A stretch of 64,000 nt of DNA from Candidatus Limnocylindrales bacterium (GTDB lineage: Bacteria; Chloroflexota; Limnocylindria; Limnocylindrales; CSP1-4), in contig DASSHB010000031.1 of NCBI GenBank assembly GCA_035693125.1, forward strand, positions 29,864 through 93,863, written 5' to 3'. The notes beneath the pieces were generated by a model that worked only from the letters and a program-made list of their open reading frames with translations, did not search any database and had not been told where the DNA came from. Shown in pieces: positions 29,148 through 50,134 of this stretch. Position 1 is the first letter of the stretch; each line of letters opens with the position of its first letter. The position numbers and the translations under genes were made by a program.

Positions 29148-29184
29148 TTGACATGACGACAGACGTCTGACATCTTACGTCTTG
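29148..29184 (+). promoter_or_regulatory. Candidate promoter plus operator of the RLP cluster regulator (leaderless geometry)
   Basis: TTGACA (29148-29153), a 17-nt spacer containing the palindrome CAGACGTCTG, CATCTT, then 7 nt to the GTG at 29184. It contains AGACGTCT (29161-29168) and ATCTTACGTCTTG (29172-29184). Confidence 0.45.
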
Positions 29185-29939: not shown

Positions 29940-30056
29940 CCCAGCGGTCTCGATGGAGAAGGGAGGCCGGATGCGGGATTCCTAGACCCAACACGGAGGG
30001 TGGGGCGCGCGCCACGGGCCGCGCCGTCAGCGTCGGAAGGGGGAGGAGAGGTCCAC

Positions 30057-31559: not shown

Positions 31560-31653
31560 CCCCTTCGGCGGCGCGGGCCCTTTGTGGTCCGCGCCGCTCT
31601 CACCGCACCGATCCGGGTCCGCGTCCGCGGCCCGCCCCGCTCCGAGGAGACCG

Positions 31654-35641: not shown

Positions 35642-36426
35642 CGCCGCCGCTCATCGGCACGAGCTGGAAGATGAACCTGACGCCGAGCGAGGCGGCCCGC
35701 TGGTTCGCGGTCGCGCGGCCGCTCCTCGAGCCGCTCGCCGCGACCCGCGACCTGTTCGTCCTGCCGCCGTTCCCGGCGATCTTCGTCGCACGTGATGCGC
35801 TGGCCGGCAGCGCGATCGGGTGGGGCGGGCAGGACCTCCACGCCGACGACGGTGGCGCCCACACCGGCGACGTGTCCGGGGCGATGCTGGCCGACCTCGG
35901 GTCCCGCTACGTCGAGATGGGCCACTCCGAGCGGCGACGCGACCACGGGGAGACCGACGCGGAGGTCGCGGGCAAGGTCCGCGCGGCGTTCCGCTGGAAC
36001 CTCACCCCGATCGTGTGCGTCGGCGAGCGGATCCAGGGTCCGCTCGCGCCGGCTTGGCGGATCGTCGAGGGCCAGCTCGCCGGCGCGTTCGACGGCCTCG
36101 TGCCCGCGGACCTCGACCGCGTCGTCGTCGCGTACGAGCCGGTCTGGGCGATCGGCGAGGGCTCGGTCGCCGCGGACCCGGACCACGTCGCCGGAATCCA
36201 CGACGCGATCGACGCCTGGCTCGCCGCGCGGGGCGCGACGGCCCGGCGCGTCCTGTACGGCGGCAGCGTCGACGAGACGACCGCGGCCGCCCTGCTCGCC
36301 GTCTCGCACGTCGCCGGGCTGTTCGTCGGCCGAGCGGCCCTCGATCCAAATCGGTTCTCCGCGATCGCCGCGACGCCGATCCCGGCCACTCGCACCGGGT
36401 CCACGGTCACCGAGAGGAGCGCCTGA
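35638..36426 (+). CDS. Triosephosphate-isomerase-family protein (TpiA2/EryH-like)
   Basis: GTGA overlap with the RLP stop and GGAGGA upstream. Motifs GTSWKMN, EMGHSERR, AYEPVWAIGEG and LYGGSV. Confidence 0.85.
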   Translation: MTPPLIGTSWKMNLTPSEAARWFAVARPLLEPLAATRDLFVLPPFPAIFVARDALAGSAIGWGGQDLHADDGGAHTGDVSGAMLADLGSRYVEMGHSERRRDHGETDAEVAGKVRAAFRWNLTPIVCVGERIQGPLAPAWRIVEGQLAGAFDGLVPADLDRVVVAYEPVWAIGEGSVAADPDHVAGIHDAIDAWLAARGATARRVLYGGSVDETTAAALLAVSHVAGLFVGRAALDPNRFSAIAATPIPATRTGSTVTERSA

Positions 36427-36927
36427 ATGCCCACCGACACCCCGATCCTGCTCGGCGCCGACGACGCCGGCCTCGGCCTGCTCGAGATCATCGCCGACGA
36501 CCTGCGGACGCTCGGCCGGGCGGTCGAGACCTACCGCCCCGATGATCCGCTCCCGGACGACGCGACGACGCCGGCCGACGAGGTCGACTACCCCGACGTC
36601 GCCGAACGCGTCGCGAACGCGATCCGGAGCGGTCGATCGGACCGCGGGATCCTGATCTGCGGAACGGGGATCGGGATGGCGATCGCCGCCAACAAGGTGC
36701 CCGGCGTCCGGGCCGCCCAGGCCCACGACGTCTATTCCGCCGAGCGCGCGCGCAAGAGCAACGATGCCCAGATCCTCACCCTGGGCGCACGGGTCATCGG
36801 CCCCGAATCCGCCAAGACGGTCGTCCATGCCTGGCTCGAGTCCGAGTTCGCCGGCGGCGCGTCGACGCGGAAGGTCGCGAAGCTCGAGCGGTTGGACGAG
36901 CGGCGCTCGGCGGCGGAGCCGCGATAG
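36427..36927 (+). CDS. rpiB: RpiB/LacA/LacB-family sugar-phosphate isomerase (EryI-like context)
   Basis: The ATG directly follows the upstream TGA. Catalytic-Cys motif ILICGTGIGMAIAANK, plus SNDAQILTLGARVIG and WLESEFAGG. Confidence 0.8.
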   Translation: MPTDTPILLGADDAGLGLLEIIADDLRTLGRAVETYRPDDPLPDDATTPADEVDYPDVAERVANAIRSGRSDRGILICGTGIGMAIAANKVPGVRAAQAHDVYSAERARKSNDAQILTLGARVIGPESAKTVVHAWLESEFAGGASTRKVAKLERLDERRSAAEPR

Positions 36928-36933
36928 GCGGCG

Positions 36934-37725
36934 CTACGCGGACTCCGCGGACCGGGGCGCGGGTGGCCGGTCCCAGAGCGGTTCGGTCGTCTGCGGCGGC
37001 CAGACCTCGGGACCGCAGATGAACGCCCGAGGGCGCGGAGCCGGCACCTGGGAGTCGAGGAGCGCGACGACGACCGGCCGGATGTCGTCGAACGTCGACC
37101 ACTCGAGATACGGCCAGCCGCGGTCGGCGCAGATCGCGGCCAGGTGGTCCTTGGCGAAGACGAGGTCGGCGTGAGCGGCCGCGTACAGGTCGCTGAACCC
37201 GTCGCCGACGAACACGGTGTAGTCGCCGGCCGCCTGGTGGACGAGGATTCGCTGGCGTTTGCAGGTGCCGCACACGCGGCAGGCCGGGTGTCCGTCCGGG
37301 AAGTCGATCGCGACGCGTCCGGGCGGGAACGTCGTCCGCGCCGCGAACACCGGGAGGTCTCCGAGACCCAGCCGCGCCAGGGACGGCCCGACGAAGAAGC
37401 CGAACCCGTCGCTGACGACTTCGACGACCGCGCCCCGGCCGCGGAGCTCGTCGACGAAGGGGCGGAACGCCGGGTCGAGGTCCTCGCCCTCGGTCATCGT
37501 CGCGATCCGCTCCGTGGCGCCGTGGAGCAGCGCCGCCTGGCGGGTGAGGAGGGTCCGCGAGCCGATCGCTCCCTCGAGATATGCGGCTTCGAGCGGCGCC
37601 CAGGCGTCGAGGTCGGCGTAGCGCCGCATGACCTCGTCGGAGAGGTCCAGGCGAGCGATCGTCCCGTCGAAGTCGACGAGCACGACCAGCCTGGCCGCCC
37701 GGTCGACCGCCCCCGGACCGGTCAC
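36934..37725 (-). CDS. HAD-IB phosphatase, MtnX-like (2-hydroxy-3-keto-5-methylthiopentenyl-1-phosphate phosphatase family)
   Basis: VLVDFDGTI, VVSDGFGFF, the Cys cluster HPACRVCGTCK, and FVGDGFSDLYAAAHADLVFAKD. This layout is shared with Bacillus MtnX as I recall it. Confidence 0.7.
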   Translation of the reverse strand: MTGPGAVDRAARLVVLVDFDGTIARLDLSDEVMRRYADLDAWAPLEAAYLEGAIGSRTLLTRQAALLHGATERIATMTEGEDLDPAFRPFVDELRGRGAVVEVVSDGFGFFVGPSLARLGLGDLPVFAARTTFPPGRVAIDFPDGHPACRVCGTCKRQRILVHQAAGDYTVFVGDGFSDLYAAAHADLVFAKDHLAAICADRGWPYLEWSTFDDIRPVVVALLDSQVPAPRPRAFICGPEVWPPQTTEPLWDRPPAPRSAESA

Positions 37726-38534
37726 GAGCGGGGCGATGCCGGCGCGGCGCCCGCGGGCTGGCTTCGGCCCAGCCCTTCGAGCAGGAGCGGGACGTCGTCA
37801 CCGATGATCCCGTCGCAGCCCAGCTGCACGCTGCGCCGGATCGACTCGAGCGTATCGATCGGCCACGACCAGACCGCGGTTCCGGCGTCGTGGAGCGCCG
37901 CGACCACCTCCGGCGTCAGGTCCTCCCAGCGGTGCTGGAGGACGGCCGCGTCGAGGGCGACGGCCTGGCCGGTGGCGATCGAGGGATCCGAGCGGCCGGC
38001 CTCGGGCAGGCGCTCCGGCGCGAACAACGGGCTCCCCACCTCGGCCCGCGCCGCGGCGAGCGCCGCGTGGTCGAACGACGAGATGAACACCTGGTCGAGA
38101 AGGTCGCGATCGCGGAGGAGCCGGGCGACGGCGACGGCGGTGGCGGGTGCGTCCTCGGCGCTGCCTTTGATCTCGACGCACAGCAGCAGGCCCGCGCCGA
38201 CGATCAGCTCGATCGTGTCCTCGAGTGACGGGATCCGGGAGCCACGGAACCGCTCACCCCGCCAGCTGCCCGCATCCAGCGTCCGGACGCGATCCCAGTC
38301 GAGCTCCGCGATCGGCCCATGGCCGTCCGTCGTCCGGTCGACCGTCAGGTCGTGGAGCATGGCCAGCCGCCCGTCGCGGGTTCGCTGGACGTCCGTCTCG
38401 ATGCCCTCCGCGCCGAGCCGGATCGCCTCCTCGTAGGCCTCGAGCGTCTGCTCCGGGAAGGTGGCGCGCTGGCCGCGGTGAGCGATCGCGAGGGGCGTCG
38501 CCCGCCGAAACGGGTTGTCGACGCGACGGCTCAT
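37722..38534 (-). CDS. Glycerophosphodiester phosphodiesterase (GDPD) family protein
   Basis: Start MSRRVDNP at 38534. Motifs LAIAHRG, PEQTLEAYEEAIRLGAEGIETDVQRTRDG and HDLTVDRTT. NTGA overlaps occur at both ends. Confidence 0.85.
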   Translation of the reverse strand: MSRRVDNPFRRATPLAIAHRGQRATFPEQTLEAYEEAIRLGAEGIETDVQRTRDGRLAMLHDLTVDRTTDGHGPIAELDWDRVRTLDAGSWRGERFRGSRIPSLEDTIELIVGAGLLLCVEIKGSAEDAPATAVAVARLLRDRDLLDQVFISSFDHAALAAARAEVGSPLFAPERLPEAGRSDPSIATGQAVALDAAVLQHRWEDLTPEVVAALHDAGTAVWSWPIDTLESIRRSVQLGCDGIIGDDVPLLLEGLGRSQPAGAAPASPRS

Positions 38535-39637
38535 CCCGGGGCGTCGGCGGGCGCCGCGGGATCGGAGCCGAAGGGGATCAGCCGTCCCCCGCCCGGCTCG
38601 AAGCCGAGCGTGACCGGATCGTCGAGGTCGAGCCGGACCTCGGCGGTCGCCTCGCCCGGAACGTCGGCGAGGAGCAGCTCGTCCCCGACCCGGATCGTGA
38701 ACCGGGTCACGGCGCCCAGGAACGTCCGCTCGGCGATGCGCCCCGGCCAGCCGCCGGGATCGGCGCCGTCGGCGGCCGGGCTCACCCGGATCCGCTCGGG
38801 CCGGACGACCATGACGGCGCTGCTGCCGGCCGCGAACCGGCTGTCGGGGGCGACGCGAACCGTCCGGCCCTGCCACTCGACCTGGGATCCATCGCCGCCC
38901 GTGACCCGGACCGGCAGCCGGTTCGAGGTGCCCACGAACCGGGCGACGTACTCGTTCGCGGGGGCCGTGTAGATCTCCTCCGGCGTCCCGAGCTGCTCGA
39001 CCCGGCCGTCGCGCATCACCGCGACCCGGTCGGAGATCGAGAGGGCCTCCTCCTGGTCGTGGGTGATGTACATCGTGGCGATGCCGAGGCTCCGCTGGAT
39101 CCGCCGGATCTCGAGCCGGAGCGTCAGCCGGACGGCGGCGTCGAGCGCCGACAGCGGCTCGTCGAGGAGGAGGACCGGCGGCTCGATCGCGAGGGCGCGC
39201 GCGAGGGCCACCCGCTGCTGCTGGCCGCCGGACAGCTGATGGGGATAGCGGCCGGCGGCGTCGCCGATCTGGATGAGCTCCACGAGCTCGGCCACCTTGC
39301 GCTTGACGTCCGCCCGGGAGCGCTTGCGAACCGCGAGGCCGTAGCCGATGTTCTCGGCCGCGGTCATGTTCGGGAAGAGCGCGTACGACTGGAACACGAC
39401 GCCCATGCCCCGCTGGTTGGCGGGCTCGTGGGTCACGTCGCGGCCTTCGAGGAAGATCCGGCCGCGGTCGGCGGCCACGAGGCCGGCCACCATCCGCAGC
39501 GTCGTCGTCTTGCCGCAGCCGCTCGGGCCCACGAGGGATACGAGCTCGCCGCGGTCGATCACCAGATCAAGGCTGTCGACGGCGACGACACGACCGAACG
39601 TCTTGCGCAGCTGCTGGAGCTCGAGCTGGGTCACCAT
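38531..39637 (-). CDS. ABC importer ATP-binding protein (PotA/MalK-like)
   Basis: Walker A GPSGCGKTT, signature LSGGQQQR, Walker B LLLDEPLSALD, and a C-terminal TOBE-like regulatory domain. Confidence 0.9.
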   Translation of the reverse strand: MVTQLELQQLRKTFGRVVAVDSLDLVIDRGELVSLVGPSGCGKTTTLRMVAGLVAADRGRIFLEGRDVTHEPANQRGMGVVFQSYALFPNMTAAENIGYGLAVRKRSRADVKRKVAELVELIQIGDAAGRYPHQLSGGQQQRVALARALAIEPPVLLLDEPLSALDAAVRLTLRLEIRRIQRSLGIATMYITHDQEEALSISDRVAVMRDGRVEQLGTPEEIYTAPANEYVARFVGTSNRLPVRVTGGDGSQVEWQGRTVRVAPDSRFAAGSSAVMVVRPERIRVSPAADGADPGGWPGRIAERTFLGAVTRFTIRVGDELLLADVPGEATAEVRLDLDDPVTLGFEPGGGRLIPFGSDPAAPADAPG

Positions 39638-39706
39638 CGCGTCCCCTCTGGTCGGCGGCGGATTGGCCTGCGCTGGCTTGACATGGAGTGTAGCGTGGTC
39701 GAGGTC

Positions 39707-39740
39707 AGACGTTATACCTCATACGTCTTCCCGTCTAGAC
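39707..39740. promoter_or_regulatory. Candidate HutC-type operator cluster in a divergent intergenic region
   Basis: AGACGT (39707-39712), a 10-nt spacer, ACGTCT within CTCATACGTCTTC (39718-39730), and the perfect palindrome GTCTAGAC (39733-39740). The last is the core of DasR-like HutC operators. Confidence 0.45.
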
Positions 39741-39767
39741 CGCGTTTGGCAGAGGGACCAGCCGACC

Positions 39768-40556
39768 GTGACGTTGATCGGCCAGGCGAAGCTCGCCTCC
39801 AGGGTGCGCGAAGAGGTCCGCGACCGGATCCGCGACGGCCGGTTCTCGGACGGCGTCCAGCTGCCCCCCGAGGTCGAGCTCGCGACGTCCCTCGGCGTCA
39901 GCCGGACGACGGTCCGCGAGGCGCTCCTCCAGCTGGAGCAGGAAGGCCTGCTCATCCGGCGCCACGGCCACGGGACGTTCGTCCGCTCCGCGGCCCGCCT
40001 GCGCGGCAGCCTCAACGCGAACCTGAGCGCCACGGAGGTGATCCGCGGCCACGGGATGGAGCCCGGGACGAGCCACGCCCGGATCGAGGAGGTCGCGCTC
40101 GATGACGACGCCGCCGCGAGCCTCGGGCTGGCCCCGGGCGCAGCGGCGGTCCGCCTCGAACGGGTCCGGACGGCCGACGGGCGGCCGGTGATCTTCACGG
40201 TGGACGTCATCCCCGCCAGCCTCTTCCGGTCGAGCGGCGTCCCGCTCCAGAGCCTCCTCGATTCCGGCCTGTCGCTGTATCGCCTGTATGCCGATCGCCT
40301 CGGCCGGTCGATCACGGACGGTCAGGCGTCGATCCGGCTCACTCGCGCGGACGCCCTGGTGGCCGACCGCCTCGGGATCCCCGCCGGGAGCCCGATCCTG
40401 CGCCTCGAACAGGTCGACGCGACGGCGGAGGGCGAGCCCGTCCTCTTCTCGGTGGAGTCGTACGTCGCCGACACGTTCGAGTTCAGCGTCCATCGTCGAG
40501 GGCCGGCTCTCGAGGCCCTCCCGACTCGGGCCCGGCCGGCCCGACCGAGCGGATGA
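39768..40556 (+). CDS. GntR-family transcriptional regulator, HutC subfamily
   Basis: GTG at 39768 with GAGGGA about 10 nt upstream. LPPEVELATSLGVSRTTVREALLQLEQEGLLIRRHGHGTFV plus a UTRA-like domain. Confidence 0.85.
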   Translation: MTLIGQAKLASRVREEVRDRIRDGRFSDGVQLPPEVELATSLGVSRTTVREALLQLEQEGLLIRRHGHGTFVRSAARLRGSLNANLSATEVIRGHGMEPGTSHARIEEVALDDDAAASLGLAPGAAAVRLERVRTADGRPVIFTVDVIPASLFRSSGVPLQSLLDSGLSLYRLYADRLGRSITDGQASIRLTRADALVADRLGIPAGSPILRLEQVDATAEGEPVLFSVESYVADTFEFSVHRRGPALEALPTRARPARPSG

Positions 40557-40689
40557 GGCGCCGTGCCCGACGCGGACCGTGAACGGGTCGCCGCGGCCCG
40601 GAACCCCATCTGACCGGTCGCGGGCCGGAGGGCCCTCGACCACCAACCGACCATCGCGCAACCGGGATCGAATCTGTGGAGGAGGACGA

Positions 40690-41826
40690 ATGCATCGACG
40701 ACGCTCAGCGATCGGCTCGATCGGGCTGACCTTGATCCTCGTGGCCGCCTGCGGCAGCACGGCTTCGCCGTCGCCGTCGAGCAGCGGCGCCGGCGCGAGT
40801 GCCGGAACGGGATCGAGCGGCCCGGACGCCTCGGCCGTCATCGCGGACCTCGTGACGAAGGCGAAGGCCGAAGGCGCGCTGAACAGCTACGGCATGCCGC
40901 CCGACTGGACGAACTTCGGCGCGATCTGGGACAAGTTCCTGCCGACCTACGGCCTGACCCACACCGACACCGACATGTCGAGCGCGGAGGAGATCCAGAA
41001 GTTCGACGCCGAGAAGAACAACCCGGTCTCCGACCAGGGCGACATCGGGATCCAGTTCGGCCCGGTCGCCGTGTCGTCCGGCACGGTCCAGCCGTACAAG
41101 CCGACCCGCTGGGACCTGATCCCCGACTACGCCAAGGACCCCGACGGCAACTGGATGTGCTGGTACACCGGCACGATCTCCTTCGCCGTGAACACGGCGC
41201 TCGTGCCGAACGTGCCCAAGAGCTGGGCCGATCTGCTCAAGCCCGAGTACAAGGGCACCGTCGCGATCAGCGACCCGCGGAACGCCGCACAGGGCTCGAT
41301 GACGGTCCTCGCCGCGGCCCTGGCCAACGGCGGCTCCGAGACGAACATCGACCCGGGCCTGAAGTACTTCGATGACCTCAACAAGGCCGGCAACCTGACG
41401 TCGGTCGCCCCGAGCAAGGCCAACATCGAGAAGGGCGAGGCGAAGATCTCGATCCTGTGGGACTACAACGCCCTGCCGGTTCGCGACGACCTCGCCGCGG
41501 CCAGCCCGGCGGTGCCGATCGAGGTCGTGATCCCGAGCGACGGGACGACCCAGGCCCCCTACTGCCACATCATCAACAAGTACGCCGCGCATCCCAACGC
41601 GGCCAAGCTGTTCCGGGAGTACATCCTGACCGACGAGGCGCAGGTGCTCCAGGCGCAGAAGTACGCCCGACCGTTGGTCAAGGGCGTCCAGATCCCCGCC
41701 GACCTGGCCTCGAAGTTCCCGGCCGAGTCGCAGTACGCTGCGGTCAAGCCGATCCAGGACTGGAAGGCCGCGGCCGACGCGATCGCCCGGCTGGCGACCG
41801 AGTGGACCATCGAGGTCGGAGCCTGA
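40690..41826 (+). CDS. ABC transporter substrate-binding lipoprotein (PotD / family-1 SBP-like)
   Basis: ATG behind GGAGGAGGA. Signal peptide with a lipobox (LILVAACGS), then a Ser/Gly linker and a periplasmic binding fold. Confidence 0.85.
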   Translation: MHRRRSAIGSIGLTLILVAACGSTASPSPSSSGAGASAGTGSSGPDASAVIADLVTKAKAEGALNSYGMPPDWTNFGAIWDKFLPTYGLTHTDTDMSSAEEIQKFDAEKNNPVSDQGDIGIQFGPVAVSSGTVQPYKPTRWDLIPDYAKDPDGNWMCWYTGTISFAVNTALVPNVPKSWADLLKPEYKGTVAISDPRNAAQGSMTVLAAALANGGSETNIDPGLKYFDDLNKAGNLTSVAPSKANIEKGEAKISILWDYNALPVRDDLAAASPAVPIEVVIPSDGTTQAPYCHIINKYAAHPNAAKLFREYILTDEAQVLQAQKYARPLVKGVQIPADLASKFPAESQYAAVKPIQDWKAAADAIARLATEWTIEVGA

Positions 41827-41936
41827 CGTCGTCCTCCTCCTCAAGCGGGATCCGCGTCCCCGCCGCCCATCGGGCGGCGGGGACGTCCCGCACCGAGGAC
41901 GAGGCCGGACGCCAACAGCTGAGGTGAGCCGCTGAC

Positions 41937-42791
41937 ATGTCGGGTCGGACGTGGAGCCGGGTGGGGCTCATTCTCGCCTTCGCCCCATTCCTGATCTTCT
42001 GCGCGATGTTCGAGCTGATCCCGACGGGCGCCCTGCTGCTCGGCAGCGTGGGTGGCGTCGAGCGCCACAGCCTCGAATGGATCGCGAAGGTCTTCACGAA
42101 CGCGACGTTCCAGCGCTCCATCCTGAACTCGCTCCTGCTGGCGGTCACCAGCTCGCTCCTCGGAGCGATCCTCGGGACGGCCGTCGGCTACGCGGTCACG
42201 CGAACCCGGCATGACCGGATCCGGCGGGCGCTCGTGGCCCTCGCCTCGCTCAGCTCGAATGCAGGCGGGATCTCGCTGGGCTTCGCGTTCATCACGATCC
42301 TGGGCTCGGCCGGGATGATCACGATCCTGCTCCGCCAGTTCGGGATCGACCTGATGTCGTTCTTCTCGATCTACTCCGTGATCGGGCTGATCGTCGTGTA
42401 CCTGTACTTCCAGGTGCCGCTGATGATCGTCCTGATGCTGCCGGCGTTCACCGCCCTGAAGGCGGACTGGGCGGAGGCCTCGGCCTCCCTCGGTGGCACC
42501 GGCCGCGACTTCTGGCGGCGGGTGGGGGTTCCCGTGCTGATGCCGTCGATCGTGGCCGGGACGGTCCTCCTCTTCGTGAGCTCGATGGGTGCCTACGCCA
42601 CCGCCCAGGCGCTGATCGGCAGCCGGATCAACCTGATGACGATCCAGATCTCGATCCTCCGCCGCGGCGAGATCCTGTACCAGCCCGCCCAGGCCGACGC
42701 CATGGCGACCGTCCTGCTCCTGATGGTCGCGCTGTCCGTCCTGGCCTACCACCTCATCCAGCGGCGCGCCCAGCGGTGGATCAAGGCATGA
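41937..42791 (+). CDS. ABC transporter permease (PotB-like)
   Basis: 284 aa with six hydrophobic segments, and an EAA-like loop around ..WAEASASLGGTGRDFWRRVGVPVL.. Confidence 0.85.
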   Translation: MSGRTWSRVGLILAFAPFLIFCAMFELIPTGALLLGSVGGVERHSLEWIAKVFTNATFQRSILNSLLLAVTSSLLGAILGTAVGYAVTRTRHDRIRRALVALASLSSNAGGISLGFAFITILGSAGMITILLRQFGIDLMSFFSIYSVIGLIVVYLYFQVPLMIVLMLPAFTALKADWAEASASLGGTGRDFWRRVGVPVLMPSIVAGTVLLFVSSMGAYATAQALIGSRINLMTIQISILRRGEILYQPAQADAMATVLLLMVALSVLAYHLIQRRAQRWIKA

Positions 42792-43654
42792 GCCTCCTGA
42801 GCGACGCGCCGGCCGTCATCGTCAACCAGCCGGACGAGGCCCAGCCGACCAAGGGCAGCCGGGAGCTCGGCTTCTCGTTCCTGTTCATCGTCTTCACGGT
42901 CTACATGCTCATCCCGCTGGTCGGGGTGTTCCTCTTCTCGATCGCGACGACGTGGTTCGACACGGTCCTGCCGGTCGGCTACACGTTCGACCACGTGATC
43001 GAGACGGTCACCGATCCGCTCTTCATCCCGACCACCGGCCGGTCCCTGATCGCCGCCCTGGCAACGATCATCGTGAGCGTCGTCCTGATGACCCCGGTGA
43101 TGTTCCTGATCCACGTCGCCGCGCCGCGCTTGCGCCCGGTCGTCGAGTTCCTGTCGCTCCTGCCCTTCGCGCTGCCGACGATCGTCCTCGCCCTGTCCCT
43201 GATCCGGACGTACTCGGCGCCGCCGATCGTCCTCTCGGGCACGCCGACGCTCCTGATCCTGAGCTACGTGGTGACCGGCCTGCCGTTCATGTACCGGGCG
43301 CTCGACAACAGTCTCCGGGCGATCGACACGACGACCCTCAACGAGGCCTCCGCGACGCTCGGTGCGTCGCGCTGGACGACCCTCCGCCGGGTGATCCTGC
43401 CGAACATCCGGACCGGGCTCGCGGCGGGCGCGCTGCTCGTGTTCTCGGTCTCCTTCGGCGAGTTCACCCTCTCGTCGTTCATCGTCGGCGACGCCTGGAA
43501 GACCTCCGGCGTCTGGACGGTGGCGATCTGGGACGACCAGCCGCACAAGACGACGGTGATGGTCGTCATCGGCTTCGCGATCAGCTGGATCATCTCGCTG
43601 ATCATCCTGTTCGCCTTCTCGAAGCGGGCGACGGTCGAGGTCGGCCAGCGCTGA
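42788..43654 (+). CDS. ABC transporter permease (PotC-like)
   Basis: The ATG at 42788 overlaps the upstream stop (ATGA). EAA-like loop ..LNEASATLGASRWTTLRRVILPN.. Confidence 0.85.
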   Translation: MSLLSDAPAVIVNQPDEAQPTKGSRELGFSFLFIVFTVYMLIPLVGVFLFSIATTWFDTVLPVGYTFDHVIETVTDPLFIPTTGRSLIAALATIIVSVVLMTPVMFLIHVAAPRLRPVVEFLSLLPFALPTIVLALSLIRTYSAPPIVLSGTPTLLILSYVVTGLPFMYRALDNSLRAIDTTTLNEASATLGASRWTTLRRVILPNIRTGLAAGALLVFSVSFGEFTLSSFIVGDAWKTSGVWTVAIWDDQPHKTTVMVVIGFAISWIISLIILFAFSKRATVEVGQR

Positions 43655-43695
43655 GGGCTGCCGGAGGGACGACGCGATCGCGCGAGATCGTTCCT

Positions 43696-43708
43696 ATCAT
43701 GCGTCTGA
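43696..43708 (+). promoter_or_regulatory. Recurrent 13-mer motif, copy upstream of the third GntR gene
   Basis: ATCATGCGTCTGA overlaps a TATCAT -10-like hexamer (43695-43700). It matches 12/13 with the copy at 55504-55516. Confidence 0.4.
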
Positions 43709-43736
43709 TGCCCAGCTCGTCGCCCACCTGCCGGCC

Positions 43737-44483
43737 GTGACGATGCATCCCGGCCGCGGCCGGCCGCTCCTGGCCGACGTCGTCCGCAGCGAGCTGAAGC
43801 GCCTGATCCTGGGTGGCGAGTTCGCGGTGGGCTCCAAGCTGCCCAACGAGGACCGGCTGTGCGAGCGCTTCGGCGTGAGCCGGGTCACGATCCGGGAGGC
43901 CGTCCGCGGCCTGATCGAGGACGGCCTGGTCGTCCGCCGTCATGGCTCCGGCACGTACGTGACGCGCCGACCGCTGATCCGGAACTCCCTCGACGTGAAC
44001 TACAGCTACACCGAGCACTTCCAGGCGTCCGGATTCCGGCCGGGCCGCAAGCTGGTGGGGCTGCGCACGGTGCCGGCCAACCACGAGGACGCCGCGGCGC
44101 TGGGCATCGAGCCCGGCACGCCCGTTCGCGAGGTCCGTCGCGTCCGGACGGCGGACAGCCGGCCGGCGATCTACTCGATCGATCGGATCCCGGTGGCGCT
44201 GCTCGCGGCCGGTGTCGACCGCTCGGAGTACGGCGGCTCGCTCTACCGGATCCTGACCGATGCCGGCCATCCGATCTCCCATGCCGAAGCCGTCCTCCGG
44301 CCGGCGGTCGCGAGCGCCGAGCTGGCCCGCGTCCTCGATGTCTCCCCCGGGACGCCGGTCCAGGAGCTGCACCAGGTGGACTTCGACCAGGACGGCCGCG
44401 CGGTGATGGTCTCCGACGAGTGGCACGTGACGTCGATCATCGAGCTGCGGGTGTATCGCCGGGGGCCCGGCCCGGTCGCCTGA
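43737..44483 (+). CDS. GntR-family transcriptional regulator, HutC subfamily
   Basis: LPNEDRLCERFGVSRVTIREAVRGLIEDGLVVRRHGSGTYV plus a UTRA-like domain. Confidence 0.85.
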   Translation: MTMHPGRGRPLLADVVRSELKRLILGGEFAVGSKLPNEDRLCERFGVSRVTIREAVRGLIEDGLVVRRHGSGTYVTRRPLIRNSLDVNYSYTEHFQASGFRPGRKLVGLRTVPANHEDAAALGIEPGTPVREVRRVRTADSRPAIYSIDRIPVALLAAGVDRSEYGGSLYRILTDAGHPISHAEAVLRPAVASAELARVLDVSPGTPVQELHQVDFDQDGRAVMVSDEWHVTSIIELRVYRRGPGPVA

Positions 44484-44559
44484 CCGCGACCCCCGCGGCC
44501 CAGGCCTTGACGCGGCCGCGCGATCGCCGCGCGGCGTCCCGGATCATGTAGGATAAGTC

Positions 44560-44572
44560 ATCATACGACTCT
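44560..44572 (+). promoter_or_regulatory. Recurrent 13-mer motif, copy upstream of the second FGGY kinase
   Basis: ATCATACGACTCT lies just downstream of a TAGGAT -10-like hexamer (44549-44554), in an unusually AT-rich patch. Confidence 0.4.
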
Positions 44573-44591
44573 GTCCGTCGGAGGGATCGCC

Positions 44592-46094
44592 ATCTACGTC
44601 ATCGGCTGCGACGTCGGAACCCAGTCGACGAAGGCGATCGTCCTCGACGACCGGGGCGCGATCGCCGGCCGTGGCGCCCGCTCGTATCCGGTGTCGCACC
44701 CGCGACCCGGCTGGGCCGAGCAGGACCCCGAAGCCTGGCTGACGGCCGCTGCCGGGGCCATCGCGGACGCGATCGCCGACGCGGGACAACCCGGTGCGCG
44801 GTGCGCCGCGATCGGCTTTGCCGCGCAGCTCGACGGGATCGTGGCGGTCGACGCCGCGAACCGGCCCCTCGGACCCGCGCCCATCTGGATGGATCGCCGC
44901 GCGACCGCGGAGGTGGCCGCGGCCGCGGACCGGATCGGCCCGGACCGGATCCGCGCGATCAGCGGCGCCAACGCCGATCCCTCCCACGGCGCGCCGAAGA
45001 TCGCCTGGCTTCGCGAGCACCTCGACGCGACACCGGACGGCTACCTGCTGCCGGCCGCCTGGATCGTCGCTCGACTCACCGGGCGGCGGGTCGTCGACCC
45101 GGCGAACGCGTCGTGTCTCCTGCTGCTCGACGTGGAACGCGGCGGCTGGTCCGCCGAGGCCCTCGCGGCGTTCGGGGTCGATGAGCGGACCCTCGGCGAC
45201 CTGCGGCCCGCGACCGACGTTGCCGGACCGTTGCTCGGCGAGGTGGCACGCGCGTGGGGCGTCGCGGAGTGTCCGGTCGTGGTCGGGACGGGCGACGAGC
45301 ACGCCGCGTGCGTCGCGGCCGGGATCCTCCGGCCGGGGATCATCGGCGACATCGCCGGCACGGCCGAGCCCGTCGCCGCCGCGGCCGATCGGCCCGTTCG
45401 CGATCCGGCCGGCCTGGTCGAGACCCATGCCCATGTCCCGAGCGGGTCGTGGCTCGTGGAGCATCCGGGGTTCGTCTCGGCGGGCAGCGTGCGCTGGCTG
45501 GCCGAGGACCTGCTGGGCGTGGCCCAGCCGGAGATCGGACGGCTCGCCGCGGACGCTCCCGCCGGCGCGGGCGGCGTCGGGTTCCTGCCGGCCCTCGGCG
45601 GTGCGATGACCCCGCGCTGGGAGCCGTCCGTCCTCGGTGCGTTCAGCGGGCTCGCGGCCGGCCACGATCGGCGGCATCTCGCCCGGGCCGTCCTCGAGGG
45701 CTGCTCGTACGCGGTCCGCGACGTCGTCGAGCGGCTGGCCGAGCTGGGATTGGCCGGCGACACGATCCGGGTCGTCGGCGGCGGGGCTCGCGACGACACC
45801 TGGCTCCGGATCAAGGCGGACGTCACGGGCCGCCGAATCGAGCGGCTCGCCGAACCGGAGGCGACGGCCCTCGGGGCGGCCCTGATCGCCGCGGTGGGCG
45901 TCGGCTGGTTCGCCGATCTCGATGCCGCAAGCGCCGCCACGCTGCGACTCGCACCGGAGGTCATCGAGCCCGACGCGGCCCAGCGGGCGCGCTACGAGGA
46001 CGGCTGGGCCGCGCATCGCGAGCGATTCGACGTCCTGGCCGCGGCCGGTCGCGATTCGACGCAACTCGCCGCCCTCGGCGGCCGACCGGCATGA
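44592..46094 (+). CDS. FGGY-family carbohydrate kinase; probable non-canonical ATC start
   Basis: The ORF track starts at GTG 44691, but the conserved FGGY N-terminus IYVIGCDVGTQSTKAIVLDD is encoded in-frame upstream. GGAGGG (44579-44584) lies 7 nt before ATC 44592. Later motifs are VVGTGDEHAACVAAG and VVGGGARDDTWLRIKADVTGRRI. Confidence 0.8.
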   Translation: MYVIGCDVGTQSTKAIVLDDRGAIAGRGARSYPVSHPRPGWAEQDPEAWLTAAAGAIADAIADAGQPGARCAAIGFAAQLDGIVAVDAANRPLGPAPIWMDRRATAEVAAAADRIGPDRIRAISGANADPSHGAPKIAWLREHLDATPDGYLLPAAWIVARLTGRRVVDPANASCLLLLDVERGGWSAEALAAFGVDERTLGDLRPATDVAGPLLGEVARAWGVAECPVVVGTGDEHAACVAAGILRPGIIGDIAGTAEPVAAAADRPVRDPAGLVETHAHVPSGSWLVEHPGFVSAGSVRWLAEDLLGVAQPEIGRLAADAPAGAGGVGFLPALGGAMTPRWEPSVLGAFSGLAAGHDRRHLARAVLEGCSYAVRDVVERLAELGLAGDTIRVVGGGARDDTWLRIKADVTGRRIERLAEPEATALGAALIAAVGVGWFADLDAASAATLRLAPEVIEPDAAQRARYEDGWAAHRERFDVLAAAGRDSTQLAALGGRPA

Positions 46095-47548
46095 CGGCGC
46101 GCCGCCATCTCGACCCGACCGATCTCGCCGCGGTTCGGGCCGCGGTCGGACTCGACGTCGCGGGCTCGAGGCTGCACGACGTGGGTCTCGAGCGCATCGT
46201 GATCGCCCGCGATGCGCTCGATTCCCTGCCCGAGCTCGTCCGAACGGCTCTGGCCGCGGCCGGCCGCCTCCCGGGGGCGGAGACGCCGTCCGTGGCCGTC
46301 GTCGTCGACGGCCACCCGATGGATCGCGGCGGCGCCGATCTCCGCGCCCTCGTCGTCGACCGGCTCGAAGGCGTCGCGGACGTTCGGATGGTCGTGCTGG
46401 GGACGGCGGACCGCGAGCTGCACGCCGAGGCATCGACGATCGCGGCCGCGGTCGAGGCCGCACGGGGTGCGGCCTGCCTCGTCGCGCTCGGCTCCGGAAC
46501 GATCTGTGACATCGTCAAGGAGGCGAGCCGCGAGCTGGGCGTCGCCGACATCGCGGTCCAGACCGCCAACTCCGTCAACGCCTTCTCGGACGACATGGCG
46601 GTCCTGCTCATCCGCGGCGTCAAGCGGACGGTCCCGTCGCGCTGGCCGACGGCCCTGCTCGTCGACCTGACCACGATCGCCGACGCGCCCGCCCGGCTGA
46701 ACCGCGCCGGGGTGGGGGAGCTCGCCGCGATGTTCACCGCGCCCGCCGACTGGCGCCTGGCCGCGGCGTTCGGGATGGATCCGACCTGGGACCCGCGCGT
46801 CGTCCGGCTGTTCACCGATGGCGGCGACGCCCTGCTCGAGGCGGCATCGGCGGCGACCTCGCCGGAGCCCGACGATCATCGACCGCTCGTCGAGCTGATG
46901 ACCCTGAGCGGGCTCGCCCTCGGCATTGCCGGCAAAACCTCGCCGATCTCGGGGACCGAGCACACGGTCAGCCACCTGCTGGACATGGTCGCGGCGCGCG
47001 AGCACACGCCGACGGGCCTCCACGGCGCGCAGGTCGGGGTGGCCGCGCTCGCCGTGTCCGTGGCCTGGCAACGCGTCCTGACCGCGATCGACCCGGTCGG
47101 GCTCGTGGAGCGGCCCACGCCGTCACACGAGCGGATGCTCGCGCGCACCGAGGACGCCTTCGGGGATCTCGATCCGAGTGGGGCGATGGCCGAGGAATGC
47201 TGGGCCCAGTACCGGCTGAAGCTCGAACGCTGGGAGGCTCAACGCCCGAACCTGCCGGCGATCGTCAGCGGCTGGGCGGCGTTGCGCGACGACCTGGGCG
47301 AGTTCCTGGGATCGCCGCAGCGCGTGGCGTCCGTGCTCTCCGCGGCCGGCGCGCCGGCGCGGTTCGATGAGCTGGACCCGGCCGTCAGCCGCGAGGACGC
47401 CGCCTGGGCGCTGTACAACGGCCACCTGATCCGCGATCGGTTCACCCTCGCCGATCTGGCCTGGTTCGCGGGGACGTGGACGCCCGATCTCGTCCGAGCC
47501 TCCATCGACGAAGCCGCCGCGATCGCGGCGGCGGCAGGAGGAGCGTGA
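46091..47548 (+). CDS. Iron-containing alcohol dehydrogenase family, sn-glycerol-1-phosphate dehydrogenase (AraM/EgsA)-like
   Basis: ATGA overlap with the kinase stop. Motifs LVALGSGTICDIVK, ..RAGVGEL.., and the metal-His motifs GTEHTVSHLLD and GLHGAQVGV. Confidence 0.75.
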   Translation: MTARRHLDPTDLAAVRAAVGLDVAGSRLHDVGLERIVIARDALDSLPELVRTALAAAGRLPGAETPSVAVVVDGHPMDRGGADLRALVVDRLEGVADVRMVVLGTADRELHAEASTIAAAVEAARGAACLVALGSGTICDIVKEASRELGVADIAVQTANSVNAFSDDMAVLLIRGVKRTVPSRWPTALLVDLTTIADAPARLNRAGVGELAAMFTAPADWRLAAAFGMDPTWDPRVVRLFTDGGDALLEAASAATSPEPDDHRPLVELMTLSGLALGIAGKTSPISGTEHTVSHLLDMVAAREHTPTGLHGAQVGVAALAVSVAWQRVLTAIDPVGLVERPTPSHERMLARTEDAFGDLDPSGAMAEECWAQYRLKLERWEAQRPNLPAIVSGWAALRDDLGEFLGSPQRVASVLSAAGAPARFDELDPAVSREDAAWALYNGHLIRDRFTLADLAWFAGTWTPDLVRASIDEAAAIAAAAGGA

Positions 47549-48381
47549 CGACGGCGACGGGCGGCGGGCGCGCCGTCCGACCGGCCGAGCGACGCTACCC
47601 GGGCTACGTCCTGGACCTGGACGGGACCGTCTATCTCGGCGGCTCGCCCCTGCCCGGCGCGGTCGACGCGATCGGCCGGCTGCGCGCGCTCGGCAGCCGC
47701 TTCGTGTTCCTCTCGAACAACCCACTCTGGGCACCGGCGGCCTACGCCGAGAAGCTGCGCGCGATGGGGATCCCGGTCGAGGACCGCGAAGTCGTGTCCT
47801 CGATCGACGCGCTCCTGGCCTATCTCGGCGACCGACCGCCGGAACGGATCCTGGCGATCTGCGAGCCGCTCCTGACCGAGCTGCTCGGCGAGGCCGGATA
47901 CGCCCTGACGGACGATCCGCGGGCGGCGGATGCGGTCGTCCTGTCGTGGGACCGCGGCTTCACCTACGACAAGCTCCATGCCGCGTATGTCGCGCTCCGC
48001 AACGGGGCCCGGCTCATCGCCACGAACCCCGACCCGTACTGCCCGACGCCCGAGGGCGGCCTGCCCGACTGCGGCGCGCTCCTCGCCGCGGTCGAGGTGG
48101 CCAGTGGCGTCCGGGCCGAGGCGGTCGTCGGCAAGCCGTCGGTCCACATCGCCCGAGCGGCCCTGTCGCGCCTGGGCGTTCCCGCCGGCGACGCCCTGAT
48201 GGTCGGCGACCGGGTCCTGACCGACGTGGGTCTCGCCCGCGCGGCCGGGATGACCGCGGCGCTCGTCCTGACCGGCGCGACCGCGCTGGGCGACGTGCCA
48301 CCGCCGCCCCACGGCCCCGATCTCGTCCTGGAAGGCCTCGGCCAGCTCATTCCGCCATCGATCGAGGGGAGCCCATCGTGA
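47545..48381 (+). CDS. HAD-IIA family hydrolase (NagD-like sugar-phosphate phosphatase)
   Basis: GTGA overlap. Motifs YVLDLDGTVY, FLSNN, GKPS and MVGDRVLTDV. Confidence 0.85.
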   Translation: MTTATGGGRAVRPAERRYPGYVLDLDGTVYLGGSPLPGAVDAIGRLRALGSRFVFLSNNPLWAPAAYAEKLRAMGIPVEDREVVSSIDALLAYLGDRPPERILAICEPLLTELLGEAGYALTDDPRAADAVVLSWDRGFTYDKLHAAYVALRNGARLIATNPDPYCPTPEGGLPDCGALLAAVEVASGVRAEAVVGKPSVHIARAALSRLGVPAGDALMVGDRVLTDVGLARAAGMTAALVLTGATALGDVPPPPHGPDLVLEGLGQLIPPSIEGSPS

Positions 48382-49049
48382 TCGAGTTCGTGTTCATGCT
48401 CACCCACAGCGACCGGACGGTCCCGAACGCCCGGGCCGTGTACGACGAGATCCGCGAGGCGGACCTGCGCTACGTCGGGTTCAAGGACATCGGCCTCCCG
48501 ATCGCGGAGCTCAAGGCCCTCTCGGCGGCGATCCGGGCCGACGGTCGCGAGGTGATGCTCGAGGTCGTGTCCGAGGCGAAGGACGACGAGCTGCGCTCGA
48601 TCCGGGCCGCGCTCGAGATCGGGGTCGACTGGCTGCTGGGCGGAACCCATCCCGAGGACGCGCTCCGGATCCTCGACGGCACCGACGGGATCCGGTACTG
48701 CCCGTTCCCCGGCCGGGTGATCGGTCACCCGAGCCTCCTGCGCGGGACGATCGACGAGATCGCGAGCGACGCCGACCGGCTCACCTCGATGCCGGGCGTC
48801 CACGGCCTGGACCTGCTCGCCTACCGCTATGACGGCGACGTCGAAGCGTTGACCGCGGCCGTCCGCGAGCGGGCCCACGGCCCCGTCATCGCCGCCGGCA
48901 GCGTCGATTCGCTCGAGCGGATCGCGGCCCTCGAGCGGATCGGCGTCTGGGGCTTCACGATCGGTGGGGCGATCTTCGACGGGAAGTTCGCGGGCGCGCC
49001 GTCCGTCGCCGCCCAGATCGCGACCGTGCTGGCCGCGACCGGCCGCTAA
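48378..49049 (+). CDS. Putative phosphate-binding (beta/alpha)8-barrel protein, GlpP/NanE-like, function unknown
   Basis: GTGA overlap. Alternating strand/helix pattern with a C-terminal ..PVIAAGSVDSLERIAALERIGVWGFTIGGAIFDGKF, reminiscent of G3P-antiterminator / ManNAc-6-P-epimerase-type barrels. The family assignment is tentative. Confidence 0.55.
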   Translation: MIEFVFMLTHSDRTVPNARAVYDEIREADLRYVGFKDIGLPIAELKALSAAIRADGREVMLEVVSEAKDDELRSIRAALEIGVDWLLGGTHPEDALRILDGTDGIRYCPFPGRVIGHPSLLRGTIDEIASDADRLTSMPGVHGLDLLAYRYDGDVEALTAAVRERAHGPVIAAGSVDSLERIAALERIGVWGFTIGGAIFDGKFAGAPSVAAQIATVLAATGR

Positions 49050-50134
49050 GCCGGCCCGGCGTCCGGGCCCACCGGCCGGACGCGCTCGAACCGACCGGTT
49101 CGGGCCGAGCGGTAGAGAGCCAGCACGGTCGCAAGCGCGACGTCCACGTCGGCCAGGCCCGGGCTCGGCGGCCGCCCGACGCGGATCGCTCCGACGAATG
49201 CCCGGATCGTCGCGACGAACGGGTCGACCGGTTCGGGCTCGAGCTCCAGCCAGCCCGCCGGCCGGGCGTCGCCCGTCGCCGCCCGGTGGTAGTGGCGCAG
49301 CTGCGGCCGAGCCGCGTACGGGTCGCCGAGCCGGACCGACCCGTCGGTGCCGTCGAGCTCGATCGTCTCCTCCTCGACGGCGCCGGGGGCATGGGCCGCG
49401 GCCACGAGGCTGCCGAGGACGCCGTCGCGGTACTCGAGCGTCGCGCTCGCGACGTCCTCGACCTCGACGCCGGGGATGCCGTAGCTGGTGAGGCCGGCGA
49501 CGCGGAGGGGCTCGAGGCCCGTGATCGCGCGAACGAGGTCCAGCTGGTGGATCGCGTTCATCAGGGCGACGCCGCCACCGGCCCGGGCCAGGCTCGCCCG
49601 CCACGGATCACGGACCGCGCCAGTCGGCCCGGCCGACCAGTAGTCCGCGGGCTTGTCGATCAGCGTCCGGATCCGGACCGAGCGCAGCCGGCCGAGGCTG
49701 CCCGTCCGGACCAGGGCCGTCGCCGCCGCGACCGTCGAGACCTGCCGGAGCTCGAAGACGACGCCAACCGATCGCCCGGCGGCGGCCGCCGCATCGCGGA
49801 TCGCGCGGATCCCGCGGGCCGTCGTCGCACCGGGTTTCTCGACGAGGACGTGATGGTCCGCCCGGAGGGCCGCGACCGCCGTCGGCGCGAGCCGATCGTG
49901 GGGCAGCGCGATCGCGACGACGTCGACGGCCGGATCGCGCAGGAGCGCGGCGAGCGACGAGCGGGTCTCGCAGCCGTGGCGCGCGGCGACGGCCGCGGCC
50001 CGGACCGGGTCGCGATCGTGGACCGCGACGAGCCGAGCCGCCGGCACCCCGGCGATCCCGCGAGCGAGATCGGCCGCGGCCCCACCGCAGCCCACGAGCG
50101 CGAAGCCGAGCGGCGCCTCGGCCGGGCGCCTCAC
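49046..50134 (-). CDS. Gfo/Idh/MocA family oxidoreductase
   Basis: N-terminal Rossmann motif FALVGCGGAAADLARG, plus VVAIALPHDRLAPTAVAALRADHHVLVEKP (the EKP motif). Confidence 0.85.
   Translation of the reverse strand: MRRPAEAPLGFALVGCGGAAADLARGIAGVPAARLVAVHDRDPVRAAAVAARHGCETRSSLAALLRDPAVDVVAIALPHDRLAPTAVAALRADHHVLVEKPGATTARGIRAIRDAAAAAGRSVGVVFELRQVSTVAAATALVRTGSLGRLRSVRIRTLIDKPADYWSAGPTGAVRDPWRASLARAGGGVALMNAIHQLDLVRAITGLEPLRVAGLTSYGIPGVEVEDVASATLEYRDGVLGSLVAAAHAPGAVEEETIELDGTDGSVRLGDPYAARPQLRHYHRAATGDARPAGWLELEPEPVDPFVATIRAFVGAIRVGRPPSPGLADVDVALATVLALYRSARTGRFERVRPVGPDAGPA

Follow-up and report, generated by a model that had tools for sequence, protein, structure and literature searches.

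An undescribed, widespread bacterial operon joins a glycerol-1-phosphate-dehydrogenase-like protein to an unnamed phosphate-binding barrel

We analyzed a four-gene cassette in a 64-kb stretch of DNA from a Candidatus Limnocylindrales bacterium (contig DASSHB010000031.1; this whole stretch, whose G+C content is about 73%, is called the window below). The cassette encodes an FGGY-family kinase, a protein related to sn-glycerol-1-phosphate (G1P) dehydrogenases, a HAD-IIA phosphatase and a small (beta/alpha)8 barrel, and it is preceded by the gene of a HutC-type regulator (Table 1). Altogether, our analysis indicates that this operon is real, ancient, widespread and undescribed, and it draws the attention to the pair formed by the dehydrogenase and the barrel, and to the reaction of the latter. 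Concerning function, we propose, with a probability of roughly 0.4 and from sequence comparisons, that the cassette could serve the HutC-repressed catabolism of a small imported compound R-CH(OH)-CH2OH in which R would bear an amine.

The conservation scan covered one genome per prokaryotic species, and gene contexts were rebuilt by tblastn together with limited family scans. It returned 80 barrel-encoding loci, distributed over Chloroflexota (Limnocylindrales, Ktedonobacteria), Actinomycetota (Streptosporangiaceae, Rubrobacteraceae, Mycobacterium, Acidimicrobiales), Acidobacteriota and a few Pseudomonadota. Gene order was counted wherever the barrel gene is preceded by 4.2 kb of sequence or more, which holds for 58 loci. 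Kinase, dehydrogenase, phosphatase and barrel genes follow each other in the same order and on the same strand at 48 of them; five lack the phosphatase, two lack a local kinase, two retain only dehydrogenase and barrel, and in the last one the kinase and dehydrogenase genes lie 2.5 kb downstream of the barrel gene. As order and strand recur at 48 of 58 loci across phyla, the arrangement is not due to chance. The dehydrogenase and the barrel are encoded at every one of the 58 loci and thus constitute the invariant core. The original prediction had suggested a possible kinase/dehydrogenase/phosphatase cycle; since the phosphatase is absent from eight of the 58 loci, and hence dispensable, we do not regard such a cycle as the core.

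In the window, the translated frames of the regulator and of the four cassette genes are open, with exactly the coordinates originally predicted, and the cassette genes are joined by the stop/start overlaps ATGA (46091-46094), GTGA (47545-47548) and GTGA (48378-48381). The regulator, like another one encoded farther upstream, combines an N-terminal GntR winged helix-turn-helix with a C-terminal UTRA domain and therefore belongs to the HutC group; a HutC homologue flanks the cassette at most loci. The idea of a coupled four-gene operon with its own HutC regulator is thereby confirmed. The kinase frame contains no ATG, GTG or TTG 5' of its N-terminal DxGT motif. As no canonical start precedes this essential N-terminus, translation must apparently begin at the ATC codon at 44592, which stands 6 nt behind the Shine-Dalgarno sequence GGAGGG (44580-44585) and is kept, with the next codons, in three related genomes (L003, L006 and L007). 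In the protein started at this codon the phosphate-1 motif CDVGTQSTK occupies residues 6-14, in line with its place in the FGGY family; its 321 bits on the XylB equivalog TIGR01312 stay below the cut-off of 380. One natural fusion of kinase and dehydrogenase was found (P0422). The phosphatase possesses both domains of the HAD-IIA subfamily and exceeds the 100-bit cut-off of TIGR01460, and is thus a member of it.

The dehydrogenase matches PF13685 with 65 bits for a cut-off of 28, and it displays the motifs GSGTICD (residues 134-140), EHTVSH (290-295) and LHG (310-312), the nucleotide motif and both histidine motifs being invariant in the family alignment. When the family profile was compared with the PDB, the nearest solved relative was the AraM-type G1P dehydrogenase 9h4x (E 1.7e-48), followed by 3ce9 (7e-31), the archaeal G1P dehydrogenases (about 1e-22) and, far behind, GldA (about 1e-8). 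The affinity to the AraM side suspected earlier is thus borne out. The claim that the protein carries the metal motifs of the AraM/EgsA branch can be retained only in part, as both histidine motifs of the Asp-His-His triad are kept and the Asp is replaced by Asn163. This residue aligns with the Asp of AraM (SVDGF), 3ce9 (SNDGF) and 5fb3 (SHDGI), which we take to be a metal ligand throughout the AraM/GldA/G1P dehydrogenase class; on this ground and from the alignments, Asn163 would be a replaced ligand. It lies in the segment Q-T-A-x-S-V-N-A-F-S-D-D-M (23-sequence alignment A2), and S(V/I)N(A/G)(F/Y) is found in all of the about 70 barrel-linked orthologues, whereas AraM and GldA have Asp. Most orthologues possess at least one Asp 4-5 residues past Asn163, and both D167 and D168 are invariant in alignment A2. 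The alignment with the G1P dehydrogenase from Methanocaldococcus jannaschii is ambiguous, and the Asp of this enzyme could pair with D167. A change of Asp to Asn beside the catalytic metal site, followed by another Asp, would fit a substrate that is altered and perhaps carries a positive charge.

Further features separate this protein from authentic G1P dehydrogenases. It obtains 114 bits on the EgsA equivalog NF002022, whose cut-off of 413 is reached by none of 151 Chloroflexota genomes; this archaeal model exceeds its cut-off in only three control genomes and is strict for AraM-type enzymes. Members of the family are also longer, with about 475-500 residues versus 350-400. From these comparisons the dehydrogenase appears closest to the AraM-type enzymes yet forms a clade of its own, and its membership of the G1P dehydrogenases, suggested by the original prediction, cannot be demonstrated on score, ligand position or length. 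Automatic pipelines label some homologues glycerol-1-phosphate dehydrogenase and others iron-containing alcohol dehydrogenase, and the former annotation is probably wrong for this clade. The enzyme can still act in a similar way, by oxidizing a carbinol beside CH2-O-phosphate.

Chloroflexota relatives that are not linked to the barrel differ at this position. Two AraM-like proteins keep SMDGY, and the gene of one adjoins a HAD-IIA gene. A sister group of 475-residue Fe-ADH_2 proteins (L127, G1087:C433; L131, G1071:C62), 35-38% identical, has Thr at the position of the Asp ligand (SVTAY/SVTAF) with both histidine motifs kept.

The partner barrel belongs to a large family that has neither a name nor a Pfam model nor a known reaction. 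More than 6,600 homologues were found at E <= 1e-3, all 'hypothetical' and none with a Pfam domain, and the exhaustive search gave 869 clusters at 50% identity. The closest barrel homologues listed are 80-92% identical, compared with 60-78% for the neighbouring dehydrogenase. Among 55 diverse members K36, P109, R150 and G174 are invariant, and D12, T14, E62 and two phosphate-binding glycine motifs nearly so; the conserved set of the barrel comprises T9, D12, T14, K36, D37, E62, S65, D145, R150, G174, S175, T194 and G196. Searched against Pfam, the same 55 members gave sub-threshold matches only, to the phosphate-binding ends of HisA, NanE and NMO (weak matches: 23 to His_biosynth, 13 to NanE and one to GlpP). 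In the barrel of the window the C-terminal phosphate-binding stretch alone matches, with 19.4 bits where 23.6 are needed, so that the protein does not fall into the HisA/HisF, NanE or GlpP families. The model computed by AF2 with the family alignment, which replaced an unusable single-sequence model (pLDDT 52), is a (beta/alpha)8 barrel with a pLDDT of 97.5. Of the loose relation to GlpP/NanE-type barrels put forward earlier, the predicted phosphate-binding barrel fold thus stands and the family relation does not, the Pfam gathering scores not being reached. Foldseek retrieved generic barrels from the PDB with TM scores of 0.6-0.7 (HisA/PriA, TrpA, pyruvate kinase, RPE, GGGPS), and the best structural matches include HPS, KGPDC, OMPDC-suprafamily enzymes, aldolases and RPE; the sequence motif of the OMPDC suprafamily was not seen in the barrel. 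The modelled fold would therefore say small phosphate-binding barrel stabilizing enol(ate)-type intermediates, and nothing more specific. A likeness to PcrB/GGGPS was considered and rejected: one GGGPS chain appears at Foldseek rank 17, sequence signal is lacking and nothing distinguishes this match from other barrels.

More can be learnt from the fusions in which the barrel takes part. It is fused to PdxA in Acidovorax isolates (eight cluster members; 377 bits on TIGR00557, cut-off 290), to methylglyoxal synthase (MGS; 11 members; 145 bits on NF003559, cut-off 84, and below the cut-off of TIGR00160), to a Ser/Thr dehydratase (five members; 426 bits, cut-off 331) and to a Cupin_2 domain of Pfam (three members). 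As T9, D12, T14, K36, D37, E62, S65, D145, R150, S175 and T194 are identical across these fusions, the barrel should carry out the same chemistry in each. G1P dehydrogenase-like enzymes, PdxA and MGS all make or use a compound X-CH2-CO-CH2-O-phosphate, that is dihydroxyacetone phosphate (DHAP) or 3-amino-2-oxopropyl phosphate, and we infer from this common theme the strongest clue to the substrate of the barrel. Stand-alone homologues carry the Atlas label '4-hydroxythreonine-4-phosphate dehydrogenase family', which evidently stems from transfer off such fusions.

Only one genome (G243) was found to carry the genuine PdxA fusion, whose gene is flanked there by those of a sodium:solute symporter and of two LysR regulators; apparent PdxA-barrel read-throughs in two others (G141, G032) were discarded, since what comes after PdxA in them is a DUF1537 kinase or a CoA ligase. 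The genomes searched included G209, G298 and G030 among the Burkholderiales and, for the EgsA model, the unpublished Chloroflexota genome G1041; the sequence-level statements made here depend on none of these four. On marine metagenome contigs of about 42% GC (L109-L116) the gene of the MGS fusion stands alone, with synteny conserved on its flanks, and the fusion may be the sole MGS of those marine organisms. It was found in none of 201 Acidobacteriota genomes, and the dehydratase fusion in none of 301 Actinomycetota genomes. The barrel is rare in Gammaproteobacteria (two of 201 genomes searched). In one gammaproteobacterium (G401, L105:5077-10669) the gene of a 43%-identical barrel comes last after those of a 2-oxoacid dehydrogenase E2, an E3, a Zn-ADH and a protein of the PEP-mutase/isocitrate-lyase family, a context quite unlike the cassette.

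The proposal of an amine-bearing substrate draws on the transporters encoded next to the cassette. All those identified, at about 50 loci, are of amine or amino-acid type, and they belong to four unrelated systems: a PhnS/T/U/V-like ATP-binding cassette (ABC) importer (window, L003, L006 and L060), a PotD/PotF-like binding protein directly 3' of the barrel gene (15 Limnocylindrales-type loci), an ethanolamine-permease-like APC protein (seven loci; at L020 its 415 bits exceed the equivalog cut-off of 382) and a second type of APC permease directly 5' of the kinase gene (about 20 Actinomycetota loci, with weaker relatives at four more). No sugar-type, Ugp-type or glycerophosphodiester transporter was identified beside the cassette in the loci examined. 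These findings lend no support to the original suggestion of polyol-phosphate or glycerophosphodiester head groups as substrates. In the window, the best curated matches of the upstream importer genes are the 2-aminoethylphosphonate transporter components PhnS/T/U/V, all below cut-off; the sole NCBIfam matches of the SBP_bac_6 protein are PhnS-type models at 65-73 bits, far under their cut-offs.

In the genome of the window (assembly of 2.67 Mb, 79% complete), the dehydrogenase and the barrel are each encoded by a single gene. At this completeness, PdxS was found and PdxJ was not, and PcrB/GGGPS (PF01884) gave no match. With PdxS present and neither PdxJ nor PcrB found, the synthesis of pyridoxal phosphate (PLP) or of G1P lipids would not account for the cassette genes.

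How could such a cassette work? The gene order with its conservation, the fusions and the transporter neighbourhood are established here, and the steps below are proposals. The FGGY kinase would phosphorylate the terminal, primary hydroxyl of a substrate such as 3-amino-1,2-propanediol or a 4-hydroxythreonine-like hydroxy-amino acid. The dehydrogenase would then oxidize the adjacent secondary alcohol, as G1P dehydrogenase does with G1P, and yield a 2-oxopropyl phosphate resembling DHAP; the most attractive candidate is the product of PdxA, 3-amino-2-oxopropyl phosphate. In this latter case it would be a non-homologous counterpart of PdxA, and this would explain why PdxA can replace it as partner of the barrel. 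The barrel would process the ketophosphate, most likely either by an Amadori-type enaminol/imine isomerization leading to NH3 and triose phosphate or by decarboxylation of a beta-keto acid precursor. The Amadori-type route would need no aminotransferase, and the conserved core has none. The HAD-IIA phosphatase could play an accessory part, for instance as a safety valve that deals with a reactive phosphorylated intermediate. In its most detailed form, the proposal would have the barrel represent a new enzyme family, with 3-amino-2-oxopropyl phosphate ('amino-DHAP') or its carboxylated precursor as substrate and ammonia and triose phosphate as products, and would make the Asn-type dehydrogenase a non-homologous functional equivalent of PdxA; with the kinase, they would form an undescribed pathway, widespread in soil bacteria, leading aminopropanediol or 4-hydroxythreonine-type compounds into glycolysis. 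We put forward this detailed form only tentatively and consider it doubtful.

Several points weigh against an amine-bearing substrate. To our knowledge, 3-amino-1,2-propanediol is not an abundant natural product, and the substrate is guessed. A literature search for the cassette found no paper, and searches on aminopropanediol or serinol catabolism and for the AraM structure paper returned nothing relevant. The marine barrel-MGS fusion resembles a stand-alone housekeeping gene, for which plain DHAP fits at least as well as its amino analogue. In addition, a GlpK-like kinase and a GlpD-like flavoprotein are encoded after the barrel, on the same strand, at 30 Actinomycetota loci (406 bits for a cut-off of 590, and 325 for 360, respectively), which suggests a glycerol-like substrate, unless this pair is a second kinase/dehydrogenase arm for the opposite enantiomer, as it could be. 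The role of the phosphatase, present at 50 of 58 loci, is poorly explained. Finally, Fe-ADH_2/HAD-IIA fusion proteins exist in Bacillota (a 98-member Atlas cluster), which suggests that a reductive pairing of the two enzymes is possible.

Other readings have thus to be weighed. One may imagine that the kinase phosphorylates a tetritol, a pentitol or another neutral polyol at C1, that the dehydrogenase forms a ketose-1-phosphate and that the barrel, as an aldolase, an epimerase or an HPS/KGPDC-type enzyme, releases DHAP, as in erythritol/threitol-type pathways. The kinase is indeed XylB-like, HPS, KGPDC, other OMPDC-suprafamily enzymes, aldolases and RPE are among the best structural matches of the barrel, the GlpK-like/GlpD-like pairs recall EryA and EryB, and DHAP as a product would suit the MGS fusion. 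However, a sugar-type transporter adjoins the cassette at none of the loci examined, the OMPDC motif was not seen in the barrel, and the PdxA and dehydratase fusions would be left unexplained; we judge a neutral polyol to be rather unlikely. A reductive or detoxifying module can also be considered, in which a reactive ketophosphate formed by the barrel or another enzyme would be reduced by the dehydrogenase and the HAD-IIA phosphatase would free a harmless alcohol, for metabolite repair or product formation and not for energy-yielding catabolism. G1P dehydrogenases are physiologically reductive, the HAD-IIA group includes repair phosphatases (PGP type, on whose model TIGR01452 our protein reaches 121 bits), and the Bacillota fusions point in the same direction. 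Yet, as in catabolic operons, a dedicated substrate-type repressor and importer accompany the cassette, and it is the phosphatase that is missing at eight of the 58 loci while the kinase is nearly always present; we consider such a module the least probable of the explanations weighed here.

Between these two in probability, and improbable in our opinion, we place a true G1P dehydrogenase in an operon that handles G1P-type glycerophosphate, which could stem, for instance, from lipoteichoic acid, from phosphatidylglycerol or from head groups of archaeal type; the phosphatase, together with a glycerol kinase/GlpD pair, would re-route the 'wrong' enantiomer. In its favour, AraM is the nearest solved relative, the NAD motif and both histidine motifs are kept, and the trio of FGGY kinase, HAD-IIA phosphatase and G1P dehydrogenase-like protein parallels araB-araL-araM. 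GlpK-like and GlpD-like genes adjoin the cassette at 30 loci, and genes for a glycerophosphodiester phosphodiesterase (GDPD) and a GlpK-like kinase occur within the window. The latter had been described as standing beside the cassette; they are indeed in the window, but 6.5-11 kb away and past a convergent five-gene operon. The conserved cassette, on the contrary, includes no GDPD and no Ugp-type or glycerophosphodiester transporter, the ligand Asp is Asn in all orthologues, the score on the EgsA model is low, and PcrB/GGGPS was not found in the 79%-complete genome. Moreover, neither the kinase nor the invariant barrel would be explained, because a single G1P dehydrogenase would suffice. An archaeal-type stereochemistry is therefore the less likely reading, and the catabolism of an amine-bearing compound the one that we prefer.

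Table 1. Cassette genes, candidate operator and upstream genes (positions of the window).
Feature	Position	Strand	Support and remarks
ABC transporter ATPase (PotA/PhnT-like)	38531..39637	-	Pfam ABC_tran + TOBE_2; NCBIfam PhnT2 397 bits, below cut-off 458
First HutC-type GntR/UTRA regulator	39348..40556	+	GntR residues 149-212 and UTRA residues 236-377 of a long open reading frame
Periplasmic binding protein SBP_bac_6, PhnS-like (2-aminoethylphosphonate type)	40288..41826	+	Pfam SBP_bac_6 1e-31
ABC permease 1	41937..42791	+	BPD_transp_1; PhnU/PotB-like
ABC permease 2	42776..43654	+	BPD_transp_1; best NCBIfam match PhnV, 85 bits
Second HutC-type GntR/UTRA regulator	43737..44483	+	GntR 1.5e-20, UTRA 8.5e-30; directly 5' of cassette
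Candidate HutC operator, non-coding block TAGGATAAGTCATCATACGACTCT	44549..44572	+	24 nt, conserved, overlaps -10 region; putative function
FGGY-family kinase (XylB-like)	44592..46094	+	FGGY_N 2.7e-49, FGGY_C 6.9e-31; probable ATC start
G1P-dehydrogenase-like Fe-ADH_2 protein, 485 aa, apparently distinct clade	46091..47548	+	PF13685; Asn163, His291/His295/His311
HAD-IIA phosphatase (NagD/AraL/PGP type), accessory	47545..48381	+	Hydrolase_6 + Hydrolase_like; TIGR01460 126 bits
Phosphate-binding (beta/alpha)8 barrel, 223 aa, family without Pfam model	48378..49049	+	Conserved residues; AF2 model

The candidate operator is the sole strongly conserved stretch of the spacer between the regulator and kinase genes (alignment A3, with the window, L003, L006 and L007). 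Promoter and terminator scans of positions 43500-49500 detected nothing, including at the junction of the barrel gene with the next one. Downstream of the barrel, genes for a Gfo/Idh/MocA protein, a CE4 deacetylase and a DUF2264 protein lie on the opposite strand; the barrel stop TAA (+) and the convergent Gfo/Idh/MocA stop TAG (-) overlap in CTAA (49046-49049), so that two convergent operons meet without intergenic space. On the upstream side, the first HutC regulator, which probably starts near 39790, is syntenic in L003 and L006, where the ATPase gene also adjoins the cassette, and the true start of the SBP_bac_6 gene lies downstream of 40288. The region 29184-43654 together with the cassette (29-49 kb) resembles a single island for polyol or amino-polyol catabolism. 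It encodes two HutC regulators and a single PhnS-like importer, the ATPase of which is encoded by the other strand.

Amine-related genes, which favour an amine-bearing substrate, also occur around the cassette in Actinomycetota. At 21 loci the opposite strand encodes an acylating aldehyde dehydrogenase together with a class-III aminotransferase; within this group of loci, genes for a bacterial microcompartment shell protein and for an APH kinase are found close by, a combination typical of RMM amino-alcohol metabolosome loci. At L019 (185-5770) and about 20 related loci this set is RMM-like and stands head-to-head with the cassette, the L019-type set comprising genes for the shell protein, for the class-III aminotransferase and for an acylating aldehyde dehydrogenase that resembles PduP/EutE, with the APH kinase nearby in related loci. 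RMM-type amino-alcohol metabolosome loci are known from Mycobacterium and Rhodococcus (PMC4207490), and RMM-like loci are thereby extended to Streptosporangiaceae-type genomes. In Mycobacterium sp. OAS707 (L080:11564-15790), genes for glutamine-synthetase-like, Peptidase_C26, aldehyde dehydrogenase and SDR proteins follow the HutC gene of the cassette on the same strand, a gene set of gamma-glutamylation-type amine catabolism.

What would be the interest of such a system? Thousands of genes of Chloroflexota, Actinomycetota and Acidobacteriota are automatically annotated as glycerol-1-phosphate dehydrogenase, and they are used in arguments on archaeal-type bacterial lipids. The barrel fusions to PdxA, MGS and Ser/Thr dehydratase lead to a testable hypothesis, namely that a reaction is missing at the triose-phosphate/amino-ketophosphate node. 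The isolate OAS707, which bears the cassette, allows genetics and growth tests.

A parallel can finally be drawn with known systems. The original prediction had allowed that the operon might belong to a known pathway such as L-arabinose utilization, and the cassette turned out to be embedded in none. With the ara operon it shares a trio of protein families, and with AraM the Fe-ADH_2/DHQS-like fold family, the GSGT..D motif and both histidine motifs. On the other hand, identity to AraM is only about 30%, the dehydrogenase described here is about 80-100 residues longer, and AraM has SVDGF where every orthologue of our protein has the Asn-type motif. The ara operon also lacks a barrel, whereas the present dehydrogenase is always paired with one, and the neighbours examined here include no arabinose genes, the transporters being of amine and not of sugar type. 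PdxA turns R-CHOH-CH2OP into a 2-oxopropyl phosphate and is found fused to the barrel family in Acidovorax-like genomes, but our dehydrogenase is not homologous to it; the PdxA-PdxJ route to PLP differs in that the genome of the window uses PdxS without PdxJ, and a sequence match between the barrel and the PdxJ family is lacking. The RMM loci resemble the cassette by a GntR regulator, an amino-acid permease and the amino-alcohol theme, and such genes adjoin it at the 21 Actinomycetota loci; their APH kinase, class-III aminotransferase-like enzyme, aldehyde dehydrogenase and shell proteins are, however, found neither in the window nor in the conserved cassette. As for the erythritol pathway of Brucella and Rhizobium (FGGY kinase EryA, GlpD-type dehydrogenase EryB, isomerases), our dehydrogenase is an NAD-type Fe-ADH_2 protein instead of a flavoprotein, no sequence relationship links the barrel to EryC/TpiA2 and the transporters are of amine type. 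Nevertheless, the two systems have in common the succession of a kinase, a polyol-phosphate dehydrogenase and an isomerase-type barrel, and a GlpD-like gene adjoins the cassette at many loci.

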